A stretch of DNA of 64,000 nt from Bacteroidota bacterium (GCA_020161835.1 JAIUNL010000008.1:84552-148551); one strand, 5' to 3'; positions 2,812-27,542 are shown, counted from the stretch's first letter. A program made the numbers and translations. The notes: generated by a model from the sequence alone, not told the origin.

Positions 2812-3816
2812 ATGGAAGAACAGATTAAACTGGTTCATGAAGCCATTGATGCTTCTTTGCCTTTGAGTTCATCTGATGCCATTGAAGCTTTCAGAATTCG
2901 TTTTCTTGGCCGGAAGGGAACTGTAAGTGCTCTGTTCGAGCAACTTGGCAGTGTTCCCAAAGAGCAAAAAGGACAAGTTGGAAAGCTGCTCAATGAGCTG
3001 AAGATCAAAGCTCAAAGTGCAATTGATTCTGCTTCTGCTGCCGAAAACGGCAAATCCCTTGTCATCCCCAAAACCGACCTGACTTTACCGGGAACACCCG
3101 TTCAGTTCGGCAGACTTCATCCGTTAACCGTTGTCTTAAATGAAATGATTGAGATTTTCAGATTTCTCGGTTTTTCAGTGGCATCAGGTCCGGAACTGGA
3201 GCATGACTGGTACAATTTTGAAGCATTGAATTTTGAGCATGATCACCCGGCCAGGGATATGCAGGATACTTATTTCATTGATAAGGATCTTCTGCTGAGA
3301 ACTCATACATCACCTGTTCAGATCAGAGTTATGGAAAACCAGAAACCACCGATCAGATCAATCATGCCCGGTCGTGTTTACCGGAATGAAGCCGTTTCTG
3401 CCCGGAGTTACTGTCTGTTTCATCAGCTTGAAGGACTTCTCATTGATAAGAATGTTTCCTTTGTTGATCTGAAAACCATTTTGCTTGCATTTGCCAGGGA
3501 GTTTTTTGGGCCGCAGACAAAAATCAAACTGAGACCTTCCTATTTTCCGTTTACAGAACCTTCCGCTGAAGTTGATGTAAGTTGTCATTTATGTCACGGA
3601 AAAGGCTGCCGGGTTTGCAAACATTCTGGATGGCTTGAAATTCTGGGTTGCGGAATGGTTGACCCCAATGTTCTTAGAGCTGCGAAAATTGATCCGGAAG
3701 TGTATTCTGGATACGCTTTTGGAATGGGAATTGACCGTATTGCCATGATGCGCTACGGAATTGATGACATTCGACTTCTTTGGGATAATAATTTACGGTT
3801 TTTACAACAGTTTTAA
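2812..3816 (+). CDS. pheS: phenylalanine--tRNA ligase alpha subunit
   Basis: 334 aa with class II motifs ([26 protein letters not shown]). It is adjacent to pheT. Confidence 0.92.
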
Positions 3817-6780: not shown

Positions 6781-7039
6781 TCTCATCCGATATTTGTTTT
6801 GTCGCACCTGCTATTGACACGAACAAAAAGAATCTGACAAATAATACTTCCAGGGGACACAGTTTTTATCTTGTAATGCAGGCCTCACTCCTTCGGGATT
6901 TCATCTCACCTGACACCTTAAGTGGTTATCAGCAGGTGGCCAAAGATGTTCAGTGGAAGCAAGAATTGATAAAACCCTCCCCACCGTGCAGGAAAATGAG
7001 ATTCTTCATTTTCATCAATAGCAGTGTTGCGGCACCTTT

Positions 7040-7978
7040 TTAAATCCCGAATAAAACCTTTTGTTTTCCCGCCAGAATTGACACTTCAATTTCCATTGCC
7101 CGTGTATCAATAATTTCACCATCTGCATGAATTGTTAAATCAACAAGACTTGAAATTGAACCTGCATCAGTTGTAAAGGAAGAAATTTCAGGTTCACTCA
7201 GGTGGGTTCCTTTGATTACTTTTGGGAAAATATCAAAAACACGCATTTTCTTTACCCCTGAAATCACAGTGGCATGAAAAACACCATCGTCGACTTTTGC
7301 ATGTGGGGTTAGTTTAAATATTCCACCGGCATTGGTTCCGTTTCCGAAGGTCATCAGAAATAAATCGATGTGGAAATCTTCTTCATTTGTACGAAGCACG
7401 ATTTTGGGTTCTTTGTATGTAACGAGAGTGGTAACAACCGAATAGATATAAGACAGGATGCCAAGATATTTGAGTTTATTCGCCTTTTCAGCGACGACAG
7501 CATCGAAACCAATTCCGATATTATTGATGAAATACCGTTGAGTATTGTTCGTTTTTACAAATCCGACATCAACTGACCGTTCGTCAAACTTCAAAATCTG
7601 GTCCAGTGCATCATGTACAGATGTCGACATGCCAATCATCTTCATGAAATCATTTCCGGTCCCACAGGGAATCAACCCGAAAACGACAGATGAATCCTGG
7701 ATGCCGTTAATCACTTCATTCACTGTTCCGTCACCACCAACAGCAATGATGTGAGTGGTTCCATTTGGAAGGTAACCTGCCAGTTTAATTGCATCGCCAA
7801 CACCGGTTGTGTATTTGATGTCAGCAGAAATTCCCCGCAATTTTAACTCAGATTCAAGGGTTTCACCATAACTTTTCCCTTTTCCGCCGCCGGCATTTGG
7901 GTTTACGATGAAGTAAAGATGTGAACCAGCCATATAAATATTTTCTCTCTGCCTCGTATATCTTTTAAAGATAAGCAA
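7040..7978 (-). CDS. diacylglycerol-kinase-catalytic-domain lipid kinase (YegS/BmrU/DagK family)
   Basis: 312 aa carrying the DAGK_cat glycine-rich motif IIAVGGDGTVNEVINGI and a C-terminal YegS-like beta domain. Confidence 0.75.
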   Translation of the reverse strand: MLIFKRYTRQRENIYMAGSHLYFIVNPNAGGGKGKSYGETLESELKLRGISADIKYTTGVGDAIKLAGYLPNGTTHIIAVGGDGTVNEVINGIQDSSVVFGLIPCGTGNDFMKMIGMSTSVHDALDQILKFDERSVDVGFVKTNNTQRYFINNIGIGFDAVVAEKANKLKYLGILSYIYSVVTTLVTYKEPKIVLRTNEEDFHIDLFLMTFGNGTNAGGIFKLTPHAKVDDGVFHATVISGVKKMRVFDIFPKVIKGTHLSEPEISSFTTDAGSISSLVDLTIHADGEIIDTRAMEIEVSILAGKQKVLFGI

Positions 7979-24073: not shown

Positions 24074-25197
24074 CGACTCTCCTTTGCCTTTGTCTTTTTC
24101 TTCAAAGCCAGACACTAAATTTGTTTGGACTTCAAGTTCCGGTTAATCCTGTTCACATTGAATGGGCAAAATCAGAAAAGAAAATAGATTTGCTTGATAA
24201 TCAGTTTGAATGGGTTGCCGAAGACCTGGTTTCAGAATCTCTTAATTGGAAGACCTTAACGGATTGGCAAAAAATCAGGCTTTCAATTGCTTATTCTGGG
24301 GTATTATTCCCCAACCAGGACTCTAAATCAAGTAAATTAACCTATTTTATCTGGAAAAAATGGGGTTTTGATACGGAGTGGGTGAAAACAGATTCTGGGT
24401 TAAGAGTTCCGCTTATTGCCATTCACCAGCAACTATTCGGACTTCAATTCTACCGAATTTCAGGGAAAAAATTCTATGACGTTTTAAAACTGACCCAGAC
24501 AGAAAAGCTAAACGGGAAAATTAAAATCACGCTTGAAGAAACAGAATCTGAAGAGGATTCCGGTTTAAAACCTGCTTTTATCGATTTGTCACAACTTCCC
24601 GTTATTTCAGAATCAAAATCTGAAAAGAAACTGGACTGGATTTTCAAAGAGAAAACCTACTCTTTAACGGTAGAAATTAACCGGAATCTGGCTGATTATT
24701 ATCTGAGTTTACCCAATATCCGGTTTCAGGACGCCTTGTTATACCGGTTTTCACCTGGCCTGCTGCGCTCTTTGGTTATTCCACTAAAAGCCCTGATGAA
24801 AGAAAATGGGTTAACTGAACACGAAAAAGTGGAATGCATCAGGCAAATGCTACTGCAATGTTTTCCTTACATTGACGATCAGGTTTTGTTTGGATATGAG
24901 CATCTTCAGTTTCCCGAAGAAATTTTGCTTTCTGATGGGTGTGATTGTGAAGACCGGTCGGTTTTCATGTTCAAACTTGTTGAACAATTGACTACCTTAA
25001 AACCCTTGCTGGCAGACTTTCCTGAACATGTCAGTTTACTGATTACTGCTCCGGAAGGTTGGCAGGGTGAAGTGTATGAGTTTGACTCAAGATATTTTGT
25101 TTACTGCGACCCAACCTATTTTAATGCACCGTTTGGTGAAACACCGGCCGAAATCAAAGAATTAATCCCGGAAATCATTGATTATGACGAAAAATAA
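24070..25197 (+). CDS. hypothetical protein with a possible transglutaminase-like Cys core near the C-terminus
   Basis: 375 aa. The segment SDGCDCEDRSVFMFKLVEQL resembles a transglutaminase-like cysteine-protease core, but the rest was not recognised. Confidence 0.35.
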   Translation: MTTLLCLCLFLQSQTLNLFGLQVPVNPVHIEWAKSEKKIDLLDNQFEWVAEDLVSESLNWKTLTDWQKIRLSIAYSGVLFPNQDSKSSKLTYFIWKKWGFDTEWVKTDSGLRVPLIAIHQQLFGLQFYRISGKKFYDVLKLTQTEKLNGKIKITLEETESEEDSGLKPAFIDLSQLPVISESKSEKKLDWIFKEKTYSLTVEINRNLADYYLSLPNIRFQDALLYRFSPGLLRSLVIPLKALMKENGLTEHEKVECIRQMLLQCFPYIDDQVLFGYEHLQFPEEILLSDGCDCEDRSVFMFKLVEQLTTLKPLLADFPEHVSLLITAPEGWQGEVYEFDSRYFVYCDPTYFNAPFGETPAEIKELIPEIIDYDEK

Positions 25198-25933
25198 AAG
25201 CTTTATCGAAATTCAATTTAACTCACCTTTTAAAATAAAGGCGGCCGTTTCAACCCGTATGGGTGGCGAAAGCGGAGGTCCATACTCCTCTTTCAATCTG
25301 GGGAAAAGTTCGGGTGACGATCTTATTCCTGTAAATAAAAACAGGGAAGCTTATGCCAGTTGGTATGGTGCAAATCCCGGAAAAATGGTTTTCGCTTTTC
25401 AATGCCATGGCAGTCAGATTGAAACTGTTGGTTCACCGGGTGAGTTTACTGATGTCGATGGTTTTATGACTCAAACACCCGGTTTACTGTTAAATGTTTC
25501 AATTGCCGATTGCTTTCCGGTTTGGTTTCATGATTCTGTTACGGGATGGATTGGATTGACTCATTGCGGATGGCGGGGAATTGCAAAAGGAATCCATAAA
25601 ATCCAGGTTCAAAAGTTGATTGAAACCGGCAGTAAAATTGAAAATATCCAGGTTGTTATCGGACCCGGCATCCGTTTATGCCACTTTGAAGTGGGTGGTG
25701 AAGTTGCAGAATGTTTTCCACTGAAATTCATCCGTGAAAGTGAAACGATTGGTAAGTTTTTTGTGGATTTACCCGGCATTATCCGTCAGGATTTTCTTGA
25801 TCTTGGGATCTGGCAAAAAAATATTGAAGATATGGATCGGTGCACCTACTGTGAACCCGACGTTTTTTATTCCTATCGCCGGGATGGCGGGGTTACCGGC
25901 AGAATGATGGCCGGAATTATGAAAATACAGTAA
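25178..25933 (+). CDS. pgeF: peptidoglycan editing factor PgeF (YfiH / laccase-domain, DUF152)
   Basis: 251 aa carrying the family motifs (SFNLG, HCGWRG, and a Cys near the C-terminus). Confidence 0.8.
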   Translation: MIMTKNKSFIEIQFNSPFKIKAAVSTRMGGESGGPYSSFNLGKSSGDDLIPVNKNREAYASWYGANPGKMVFAFQCHGSQIETVGSPGEFTDVDGFMTQTPGLLLNVSIADCFPVWFHDSVTGWIGLTHCGWRGIAKGIHKIQVQKLIETGSKIENIQVVIGPGIRLCHFEVGGEVAECFPLKFIRESETIGKFFVDLPGIIRQDFLDLGIWQKNIEDMDRCTYCEPDVFYSYRRDGGVTGRMMAGIMKIQ

Positions 25934-25965
25934 ATACGAAATACAATAACTACCAAATTCTTTAA

Positions 25966-26157
25966 CCACGAAACACACGAAAATCACGAAAAAATACGGT
26001 TTTTATTTAAATACAAATGGGTTTATATCCTCGCCCCTTTGTTCATTTAGATGTCATTCCCGTCCCGCAAGCGGGAGGAATTCATTCCTCCGTTCAGGTA
26101 ATTAATACTGGATTCCCGCCTTCGCGGGAATGACAGCCAAATTCGTGTGTTTCGTGG
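25966..26157. repeat. MITE-like or intergenic palindromic element with 14-bp terminal inverted repeats and nested hairpins
   Basis: The terminal repeat CCACGAAACACACG (25966-25979) is the perfect reverse complement of CGTGTGTTTCGTGG (26144-26157). Inside is an inner 10-bp inverted repeat, GTCATTCCCG (26053-62) with CGGGAATGAC (26125-34), which encloses two GC-rich hairpins (TCCCGC-aa-GCGGGA and ATTCCCGC-cttc-GCGGGAAT). The left end also carries 3-4 tandem (C/T)ACGAAA repeats. Confidence 0.4.
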
Positions 26158-26168
26158 TGAAACTTCCC

Positions 26169-27542
26169 TCAGATTCTTTCCAGTCTTGCCGTAAAGTGTC
26201 TTAAAACGGGAGCTTCATAGACAATTTTCAATCCCCGTACTGAATCACGGTGAGTAAACAACTCTATCAATCCTTCCGCCACATAATTCATGTGCATGGT
26301 TGTATAAACCCGTCTTGGAATTGCCAGCCGAACCAAATCCAATCTTGGCAAAATTTCTTTTCCCGTTGCTTCATCCTTCTTTCCGAACATGAGCGAACCG
26401 ACTTCCACACCACGGATTCCAAACTGTTTATAAAGTTCAACAACGAGAGCCTGACCAGGAAATTCTTCTGGTTTGATGTTTGGGTAAAACTTTCTGGCAT
26501 CAATGTAAACGGCATGTCCGCCAGCAGGACGAATGACCGAAATGCCTGCACCGGTCAGTAAATCAGCCAGATATTTCACCTGATTGGTCCGGTAGGCCAG
26601 ATAATTTTCATCCAAAGCTTCCATGATCCCGATTGAAATGGCTTCAAGATCACGGCCGGCAAGTCCGCCATAAGTAGGGAAACCTTCGATCAGAATCAGA
26701 TAATTGGTAATTCTTCGTGAAAGTTCAGTATCATTCAGGGCAAGAAATCCGCCAATGTTCACCAATCCATCTTTCTTTGCACTCATGGTACAGCCATCGG
26801 CATAAGAAAACATTTCATTGGCAATTTCCATGATGGATTTGTTTTCGTATCCCTTTTCACGGGTCTTGATGAAATAGGCATTTTCAGCAAACCGGCAGGC
26901 ATCAAGAAACAGGGGAATGCCAACTGATTTCAGAAGGGAACTTACCGACCTGATATTTTCCATCGAAACCGGCTGTCCGCCACCCGAGTTATTGGTGATG
27001 GTCAGCATGCAAACCGGAATTCGTTCCTTTCCATATTGTGTGATAACGGCTTCCAGTTTTTTCAAATCCATATTGCCTTTGAACGGAAGTTCAAGTTCAG
27101 GCTGATAAGCTTCATCTATCACCAGATCAAGTGCCGTTCCTTTGTGGAATTCAATGTTTGCCCGTGTGGTATCAAAATGGCTGTTGCTCGGGATGACGGT
27201 ATTTTCATTGGCTATCAGGCTGAAAAGCAGGTTTTCGGCAACCCGGCCCTGGTGTGTGGGAATCACATGTTTAAAGCCGGTAATACTTTTGATGGTTTCT
27301 TCAAATCGGTAGAAACTCCGGCTGCCTGCATAAGCTTCGTCACCCGTCATCATCCCGGCCCATTGCCGGTCACTCATTGCGCTGGTTCCTGAATCGGTGA
27401 GTAAATCAACAAAAATGGTATCGGCAGGGATAGAGAACAGATTATTTCCGGCTTCTTCCAGAAATTTAACCCGTTCTTCAAGGGTTGTCATTTTAATCGA
27501 TTCAACTACTTTTATTTTAAACGGTTCGGCTGGGAAACGCAT
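26169..27542 (-). CDS. tnaA: tryptophanase / tyrosine phenol-lyase family PLP-dependent beta-eliminating lyase. The likely start is the internal Met (MRFPAEPFKIKVVE...).
   Basis: It aligns along its whole length with E. coli TnaA (PEPFRIRVIE..., IPTHQGRGAE, SAKKDGLVNIGG with the PLP-lysine, and the C-terminal LRHFTARL). Confidence 0.8.
   Translation of the reverse strand: MRFPAEPFKIKVVESIKMTTLEERVKFLEEAGNNLFSIPADTIFVDLLTDSGTSAMSDRQWAGMMTGDEAYAGSRSFYRFEETIKSITGFKHVIPTHQGRVAENLLFSLIANENTVIPSNSHFDTTRANIEFHKGTALDLVIDEAYQPELELPFKGNMDLKKLEAVITQYGKERIPVCMLTITNNSGGGQPVSMENIRSVSSLLKSVGIPLFLDACRFAENAYFIKTREKGYENKSIMEIANEMFSYADGCTMSAKKDGLVNIGGFLALNDTELSRRITNYLILIEGFPTYGGLAGRDLEAISIGIMEALDENYLAYRTNQVKYLADLLTGAGISVIRPAGGHAVYIDARKFYPNIKPEEFPGQALVVELYKQFGIRGVEVGSLMFGKKDEATGKEILPRLDLVRLAIPRRVYTTMHMNYVAEGLIELFTHRDSVRGLKIVYEAPVLRHFTARLERI

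Follow-up and report, generated by a model that had tools for sequence, protein, structure and literature searches.

The DNA analysed here is a 64,000-nt stretch (the window) of a Bacteroidota metagenome-assembled genome (MAG; GCA_020161835.1 JAIUNL010000008.1:84552-148551), in which a protease encoded near the locus bears a type IX secretion system (T9SS) sorting domain. Between the end of a pgeF-like gene at 25933 and the end of the convergent tryptophanase gene, tnaA, at 26169 lies a spacer of 235 nt with a nested palindromic structure. We read this spacer, with a probability of about 0.75, as a composite, non-autonomous relic of selfish DNA, made of two nested palindromic modules and inserted at the tail-to-tail pgeF–tnaA junction. 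Judged from its sequence, the outer module would be the empty shell of a GxxExxY cassette, its arms kept and its gene gone, and the inner module a gene-less doublet of Ssn-related hairpins, of the type of the Neisseria Transformation Sequence (NTS) and the Ssn-related motif (SRM). The inner kind was described in 2025; the outer family, found across many phyla, appears to be undescribed.

Layout of the spacer

Pfam matches to Cu-oxidase_4 (PgeF-like) and Beta_elim_lyase bear out the convergent gene pair recognized in the initial annotation, and TnaA is 100% identical to P0001, 'MAG: tryptophanase [Bacteroidetes bacterium]'. Both stop codons lie 6–30 nt from the palindrome, that of tnaA 6 nt from its outer repeat, and the pgeF stop (25931–25933) falls, with the last codons (KIQ*), inside a degenerate tandem array (Table 1).

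The perfect 14-bp outer inverted repeats described in the initial annotation are present, as CCACGAAACACACG at 25966–79 and CGTGTGTTTCGTGG at 26144–57, and with one mismatch they extend to 21 nt at 95% complementarity (25961–81 and 26142–62). Their reported extent needs revision: they are the outermost part of three-unit tandem arms, complete on the left and truncated on the right. The left tandem (C/T)ACGAAA units are also there (period 9, 3 copies, 25967–93; Tandem Repeats Finder, TRF), and the 14-mer, with up to two mismatches, occurs three times in the window against 0.24 expected. Likewise, the inner 10-bp inverted repeat, GTCATTCCCG and CGGGAATGAC, exists and extends to 18 nt at 89% (26045–62 and 26125–42), but its two copies are the heads of two hairpin elements and not the enclosing arms of one. 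Both previously noted G+C-rich hairpins, TCCCGC-aa-GCGGGA (26063–76) and ATTCCCGC-cttc-GCGGGAAT (26112–31), are found, together with a third, GGAGGAAT-tc-ATTCCTCC (26074–91). The doublet formed by the inner hairpins is off-centre and abuts the truncated right arm.

Folding of both strands, a check proposed with the initial annotation, gave a structure far more stable than dinucleotide shuffles, with a minimum free energy (MFE) for the 235-nt spacer of −73.7 kcal/mol on the plus strand (z = −6.8) and −74.7 kcal/mol on the minus strand (z = −4.2); none of 200 shuffles folds as well. The MFE fold is multi-branched and closed by a 17-bp helix.

Table 1. Features of the spacer and its flanking genes, in window coordinates.
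Feature	Position	Strand	Basis
pgeF-like gene (Cu-oxidase_4)	25184..25933	+	Pfam PF02578, E = 9e-66
Degenerate tandem array, period 8-9 or 16	25923..25960		Repeat family D1 (74-78% identity); TRF rows 25923-25958
Left arm (terminal inverted repeat, TIR) TTTAACCACGAAACACACGAAAATCACGAAAAAA, three tandem ~9-nt CACGAAAnn units	25961..25995		Fits consensus tTAACCACGAAACACACGAAAnACACGAAAAA
A+T-rich filler with its own imperfect hairpin (26005-26022 pairs with 26033-26052)	25996..26051		MFE helices
Left SRM-like variant hairpin TGTCATTCCCG-TCCCGCaaGCGGGA-GGAATTCAT	26052..26085	+	Sequence
Palindrome GGAGGAAT-tc-ATTCCTCC, overlapping the 3' side of the left hairpin	26074..26091		Inverted repeat I13, 8-nt arms 100% complementary; MFE helix
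Canonical NTS/SRM hairpin TGTCATTCCCGCGAAGGCGGGAATCCAG	26108..26135	-	NTS with 1 mismatch; SRM pattern match
Right arm (TIR) TTCGTGTGTTTCGTGGTGAAA, shortened to ~1.5 units	26142..26162		Inverted repeat I1, 21 nt, 95% complementary
tnaA (tryptophanase, Beta_elim_lyase)	26169..27542	-	Pfam PF01212, E = 1e-78

The degenerate array is periodic at 8–9 nt (AAATACAG TAAATACG AAATACAA TAACTACC ...), starting in the last codons of pgeF and running into the spacer. It has the look of an additional left arm that has decayed: ATACGAAATACAATAA resembles, by eye, CCACGAAACACACGAA with C-to-T changes. For the filler (25996–26051), neither a homologue nor, by tblastn, a GxxExxY remnant was found. Elsewhere in the window, an inverted repeat of 22 nt, interrupted by 1 nt, at 2747–2791 (AAAGGGAACAGTCAGCGGGGCA / TGACCTGCAGGCTGTTCCCTTT, 82% complementary) ranks third-longest among the short-range palindromes and is unrelated to the spacer element.

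Arms of the outer module and their genes

The outer module consists of the arms at 25961–25995 and 26142–26162, built of tandem ~9-nt CACGAAAnn units. A scan of genome_contigs with ACGAAACACACG-N{140,170}-CGTGTGTTTCGT returned 95 stretches with 101 short palindromic elements, from Planctomycetota, Verrucomicrobiota, Elusimicrobiota, Lentisphaerota, Moduliflexota-like genomes, Nitrospinota, Acidobacteriota, Chloroflexota, Pseudomonadota and Clostridiales. A single Planctomycetaceae MAG carries 17 of these elements, the highest copy number; an Elusimicrobiales MAG has 8, and the complete Lacipirellula limnantheis genome 4. Shorter CACGAAA-armed elements, of 63–144 nt, exist as well; paired arms had zero matches in viral_contigs. 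The consensus arm from 100 elements, tTAACCACGAAACACACGAAAnACACGAAAAA, has three ~9-nt units and is conserved also at positions outside the search pattern. The left arm of the window fits this consensus over ~33 nt, and the right arm over its outer ~19 nt, with the inner units missing.

Outside the arms, the flanking 4-mers are direct repeats in 0 of 99 elements and inverted repeats in 18 of 99. The family avoids divergent intergenic regions, which account for 4 of the 58 elements with classifiable neighbours. The cores of the 101 elements are not conserved among each other; in 47, another inverted repeat exceeds the maximum of the shuffles, often one of another GxxExxY arm type, and many of these nested repeats are built of other 9–11-nt units, such as CGCAGATnn, CGCTAATnn, ACGAATCnn and CACGGAnnn. 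Nesting of palindromic cassettes is a habit of the CACGAAA-armed family.

Eight near-identical CACGAAA-armed copies in the Elusimicrobiales MAG STC_27 (L127, L155, L159, L191, L198, L199, L212 and L213) enclose a (CGCAGATnn)3 palindrome, and, as they are alike for ~30 nt past both arms, the repeated unit there is larger still. At L156:7260-7427, L213:284-472 and L157:7564-7727, complementarity runs 16–18 nt past the arms into unrelated G+C-rich sequence (for example GGGCGCTTCGCT...AGCGAAGCGCCC), and these elements look as if they occupy the loop of a hairpin that was there before them, possibly a terminator.

Some members of the family enclose a gene. A tblastn search, using as queries a truncated open reading frame (ORF) from L205 and a GxxExxY sequence, found five GxxExxY homologues in the genome loci, all five attached to repeat-built arms: of CACGAAA type in L163, L125 and L205, of CACTAATnn on both sides in L202, and of CGCAAAGnn on both sides in L151. 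The arm-linked proteins belong to TIGR04256 ('GxxExxY protein') / PF13366 (PDDEXK_3), are ~120 aa long and carry invariant D...E-x-K residues. In L163, the core of the short elements is the first ~45 nt of the GxxExxY gene, and the L205 element encloses a truncated ORF; bearing such gene remnants, these short elements are deletion derivatives. Around one GxxExxY gene, at L163:2540-3240, three left arms come one after another before the only right arm, and 5' gene remnants follow two of the three, a pattern suggestive of recurrent partial duplication or of more than one insertion into the same site. The outer element of the window is a gene-less shell, as are most of the 101 short elements.

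The linkage extends to an unselected sample of 80 GxxExxY loci from metagenome_contigs, 62 of them with adequate flanks. Inverted arms flank the gene with a score of at least 12 in 42 of the 62 loci, and of at least 18 in 30; the shuffled maximum was 10, and scores of at least 12 were reached in 10 of 61 cross-locus pairs and 1 of 62 comparisons within the gene's own coding sequence. These arms consist of three tandem units CCAC[GA]A[ATG]nn, and in the five loci of CACGAAA type the arm is followed by ~15–30 nt with a ribosome-binding site, the ORF and the second arm. GxxExxY cassettes are ~450 nt long. Arm type tracks protein clade (8/9 versus 0/23; Fisher p = 9e-7). Mismatches between the arms of 35 gene-carrying cassettes show no sense-strand G-U bias (33 versus 37, with 68 non-wobble mismatches), so that the constraint on the arms looks to be at the DNA level; selection at the RNA level was rejected on this ground.

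A published catalogue gives the function of PF13366 as 'Unknown' and notes 'multiple transfers' (PMC3424549). The literature searched, a collection with few subscription journals, contained nothing on GxxExxY or PF13366 beyond this catalogue entry, nor any of the arm strings, and by that measure the association of GxxExxY genes with arms appears undescribed. A sequence search of the PDB with a GxxExxY profile found no relative.

Hairpins of the inner module

The inner module, at 26052–26135, is a head-out doublet of Ssn-related hairpins. The NTS is a 28-nt sequence, CGTCATTCCCGCGMAVGCGGGAATCYRG, that encompasses the repeat dRS3; the degenerate SRM has the pattern HGTCWYN(0-2)YYVSBRHN(0-5)WNVSBRGN(0-2)RNCYNB. 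Small GIY-YIG proteins (Ssn, cd10448) cut single-stranded DNA next to NTS/SRM, ssn genes across phyla are bracketed by NTS/SRM hairpins, and the arrangement NTS-ssnA-NTS resembles an insertion sequence (IS; Chenal et al., Nat Commun 2025, PMC11893778). The right hairpin of the window, on the minus strand (26108–26135), differs from the NTS by one mismatch, contains the dRS3 pattern ATTCCC-N8-GGGAAT and is the sole match to the SRM pattern in the 64 kb, against a mean of 0.18 in shuffles. Its 8-bp stem, ATTCCCGC/GCGGGAAT, closes a 4-nt loop. An oriented, non-palindromic TGTCAT head is present on both hairpins; in the left one the head, TGTCATTCC, is identical to that of the right one, and the stem is enlarged.

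In viral_contigs, ATTCCCGCNNNNGCGGGAATGAC matched at least 120 stretches, in contexts of very different composition, with an extended consensus among the matches listed of CTGG-ATTCCCGC-CTKC-GCGGGAATGAC; the exact left variant hairpin had zero matches there. In L106 and L045 a GIY-YIG ORF (PF01541) lies between a plus- and a minus-strand SRM with heads outward, the same orientation as in the doublet of the window, and one of the L045 SRMs next to the ssn gene is identical to the window's right hairpin. A GIY-YIG ORF stands directly beside one SRM in L006. Gene-less head-out doublets are common, the spacer between hairpins being shorter than 80 nt in 18 of 33 '+-' neighbour pairs. When the pgeF–tnaA spacer was compared by BLAST with annotated plasmids and phages, the SRM hairpin alone was matched, always unannotated, in Azospirillum, Neisseria, Photobacterium, sphingomonads and a Microcystis phage.

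Hairpin doublets of similar layout were seen inside other elements. In the Opitutia / Didemnitutus MAGs, CACGAAA arms at L190:5528-5708, L197:7037-7207 and L149:7699-7885 enclose a core formed by a head-out doublet of GTCATTCTGAGCGAAGCGCAGAATCC-type hairpins; those of L190 and L197 (Opitutia), GTCATTCTGAGCG..., are analogous to the inner doublet of the window. The GTCATTCTGAGCGAAGCGCAGAATCC-type hairpins are SRM-like yet are missed by the published SRM pattern, which may therefore under-count the family. On the IMG/VR contig 3300009708_000104 (L017), a composite element occurs at least four times in 10 kb, between co-directional genes (L017:2260-2460, 3270-3500 and 6870-7060), in the order (CTGAAGG)n, hairpin GAACAAGGGGTTGCAACCCCTTGTTC, NTS hairpin, (CCTTCAG)n; its layered plan is that of the window, but with heptamer arms. 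A hairpin of the GAACAA(A)GGGG...CCCTTGTTC type adjoins the Ssn-type hairpin both in the window (26030–26050) and at L017:2328-2353 and 6929-6954, and may belong to a further family of small repeats or be coincidental.

Origin of the spacer and related systems

Contigs encoding TnaA at 97%, 95% and 78% identity keep the gene order of the window. In L001 and L002/L003 (TnaA 95–97%), the spacer measures 137–144 nt and is not homologous to that of the window, for which reason an alignment of the two was discarded as meaningless. It holds a different palindrome (L001:11372-11527, L002:11372-11520), whose tandem-heptamer arms read (GTGACAA)n towards tnaA and (TTGTCAC)n towards pgeF, with the last codons and stop of tnaA inside the array; the (GTGACAA)n arms were tied to no gene family, and the L002 spacer is no more stable than shuffles (z = +0.46). 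In L220–L222 (TnaA 78%) the spacer is lacking and the 3' ends of tnaA and pgeF overlap by 11 nt; this is the empty site sought since the initial annotation. The site is thus empty in one lineage and holds two different palindromic elements in others, which argues for insertion, and against an ancestral structure, as the origin of the spacer. The conserved parts of the two proteins stop at ...HFTARL (TnaA) and ...GRMMAGI (PgeF), and the few residues beyond vary by lineage and are encoded by whichever element occupies the site. Two further contigs lack pgeF next to tnaA: in L219 (TnaA 84%; 2862-2869) tnaA is followed by a gene for an unannotated 204-aa protein, with an HD-domain gene beyond, and in L223 (TnaA 80%; 1779-1916) by an EamA gene, so that the tnaA–pgeF junction is specific to one sub-lineage.

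Much at this locus would suit a host-beneficial bidirectional terminator, or a stabilizer of mRNA 3' ends, that evolved locally and whose likeness to other repeats is secondary: the genes converge, their stops lie close to the palindrome, the fold is very stable on both strands, the relatives too have a palindrome at the site, and members of the outer family lie mostly downstream of genes (54/58 outside divergent spacers). However, no stem followed by a T-run was found on either strand between 25700 and 26400, one relative with overlapping genes does without any spacer, the spacer of another folds no better than chance, and the arms of gene-carrying cassettes lack the G-U bias of a selected transcript. 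Both modules, moreover, match families that cross phyla, which is beyond the reach of local evolution. We consider a host-evolved structure of this kind unlikely, and the earlier view that the spacer has more structure than a simple bidirectional terminator needs is upheld by the missing U-tract and by the recurrence of both layers as repeat families elsewhere.

The spacer had also been likened to a miniature inverted-repeat transposable element (MITE) or to an intergenic repeat of the REP/BIME type (repetitive extragenic palindrome / bacterial interspersed mosaic element). This stands in so far as its parts belong to multi-copy families elsewhere and a relative has an empty site; what does not stand is the single element, as two unrelated modules are nested here. 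A classical MITE, the cut-and-paste derivative of one DDE-transposase IS with a TTAA or TA target-site duplication, would explain the perfect 14-bp TIRs, the small size without coding capacity, the TTAA abutting the left end and the arms in multiple copies in other genomes. The reported TTAA and TGAA flanks do exist, but TTAA is part of the arm consensus (tTAACCACG), and the search for duplications at other copies, which the initial annotation had recommended, found only continued inverted symmetry and not a single direct flank among the 99 elements; a TTAA target-site duplication was rejected accordingly. The family cores are mutually unrelated, unlike deletion derivatives of one IS, the gene between the arms encodes a ~120-aa PD-(D/E)XK protein and not a known transposase, and the inner repeats are a separate known family. 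Transposase-driven behaviour of the classical kind is therefore very improbable.

A structured non-coding RNA gene, or a cis-regulatory RNA made from the spacer, is the explanation to which we give the least credence. The multi-branched fold with its 17-bp closing helix and strongly negative z-scores would be expected of it, but no Rfam family reached its gathering threshold in the window (the best sub-threshold matches, weak and unrelated, scored 17–21 bits against thresholds of 36–75), and the one promoter-like match in the spacer is in line with chance (2 found and 1.5 expected over the region scanned). Close relatives that retain pgeF and tnaA lack the sequence, and the cores of related elements are not conserved. 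No rRNA was detected in the window. An integron attC site was considered; the element is isolated and not arrayed, and its tandem-repeat arms are presumably unlike attC.

Several observations count against the interpretation of the spacer as a nested selfish-DNA relic. None of the 95 genome matches of the arm pair comes from Bacteroidota, and no second copy of either module was found in the 64-kb window or in 82 kb of relatives. The window contains neither a GxxExxY gene (tblastn, E ≤ 1e-3) nor a GIY-YIG (Ssn) gene (ORFs, tblastn). Since both the copies and the genes are missing, current mobility in this genome is unsupported, and the element is solitary locally. The left hairpin (26052–26085) fails the published SRM pattern. 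A strict SRM occurs inside CACGAAA-armed elements elsewhere in 1 of 110 cases, which makes the combination in the window unusual and led us to reject the idea that strict SRMs and CACGAAA arms generally go together. The right arm is truncated, the doublet is off-centre, and the empty-site relative is too diverged for an insertion junction to be read at nucleotide level. Finally, the covariation of arm and protein is compatible with co-inheritance alone, and binding or cutting of the arms by GxxExxY is putative.

On the nested-relic interpretation, such cassettes would spread through their own small nucleases, acting on the cassettes' own arms or hairpins in a homing-like or hairpin-directed manner, with gene-less shells served in trans. 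Insertion would favour the interior of existing palindromes. The copy in the window is probably inert now; in read-through transcripts its 17–21-bp stem would be at most an incidental 3' structure that RNase III might cut, that might hinder 3' exonucleases or that might act as an attenuator. A broader proposal, which we put forward tentatively and at less than even odds, is that GxxExxY proteins are the nucleases of a pan-bacterial, undescribed group of palindromic mini-cassettes whose arms (three 9–11-nt units) co-vary with the protein. These cassettes would spread without target-site duplication into the interiors of palindromes (terminator hairpins or other cassettes), giving rise to nested 'Russian-doll' elements and MITE-like shells and interleaving with Ssn/SRM elements, and the window would hold a fossil of both.

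In its working, such a system may come closest to NTS-ssnA-NTS (PMC11893778), to the REPIN/RAYT system of paired REP sequences and REP-associated tyrosine transposases (Bertels & Rainey 2011, PMC3116915; PMC3337134) and to the S23p intervening sequence (IVS; PMC4990558). With the first it shares the right hairpin, which conforms to NTS, SRM and dRS3, and the head-out placement of the doublet, as around ssn genes. It differs in having no ssn gene between the hairpins or elsewhere in the window, one copy in 64 kb where Neisseria genomes have hundreds, an enlarged left hairpin outside the SRM pattern, a Bacteroidota MAG as host, and a doublet embedded in another palindromic element. As in REPIN/RAYT (PMC3116915; PMC3337134), the cognate enzyme gene is itself bracketed by the repeats, target-site duplications are lacking, motifs cluster in mosaics with others as in BIMEs, and the inner doublet (26052–26135) consists of two inverted hairpins with a spacer. 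The associated enzymes, however, are GIY-YIG (Ssn) and PD-(D/E)XK (GxxExxY) proteins and not Y1 (IS200-like) transposases, and the repeats are common to several phyla instead of lineage-specific, with one copy seen here.

The IVS in the 23S rRNA of Coxiella burnetii, a selfish element of 428 nt, is closed by a terminal stem of 28 bp and has tandem heptamers (GACAGAT) between this stem and the S23p ORF (PMC4990558). GxxExxY cassettes share its body plan, a small ORF within terminal inverted repeats in ~430 nt. Whereas an IVS occupies 23S rRNA helix 25 or 45, from which RNase III excises it, the element of the window sits between protein genes and has no ORF; its relatives encode PD-(D/E)XK proteins and not the S23p four-helix bundle, and its family differs in arm sequence and unit length (9 nt). 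MITEs such as Correia/NEMIS, Nezha and Chunjie are similar in their TIRs, their length of 100–250 nt, their non-coding and intergenic nature and their many dispersed copies in some genomes, but the family of the window is without target-site duplications, conserved cores or a DDE-transposase parent, and its arms are tandem-repeat arrays. The short tandemly repeated repetitive (STRR) heptamers and nested small dispersed repeats of cyanobacteria are reportedly tandem 7-nt intergenic units and repeats within repeats; they are presumably similar to the (GTGACAA)n arms of L001/L002 and the (CTGAAGG)n arms of L017, with different unit sequences.

For the locus itself the result is of modest weight: the final codons of two housekeeping genes have been reshaped by a lone selfish-DNA relic, which may also affect the 3' ends of these genes. 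The arms tie GxxExxY / PDDEXK_3, a large family of unknown function, to a specific DNA partner, and so offer a hypothesis for its substrate. They also account for abundant intergenic palindromes that cross phyla, are a source of spurious small ORFs and are absent from Rfam. Together, Ssn/NTS elements, the S23p IVS and GxxExxY cassettes suggest a general category of 'tiny gene inside palindrome', whose members nest in one another. If GxxExxY proteins are indeed sequence- or structure-specific nucleases for repeat-built arms, they would be possible reagents, as has been proposed for Ssn.

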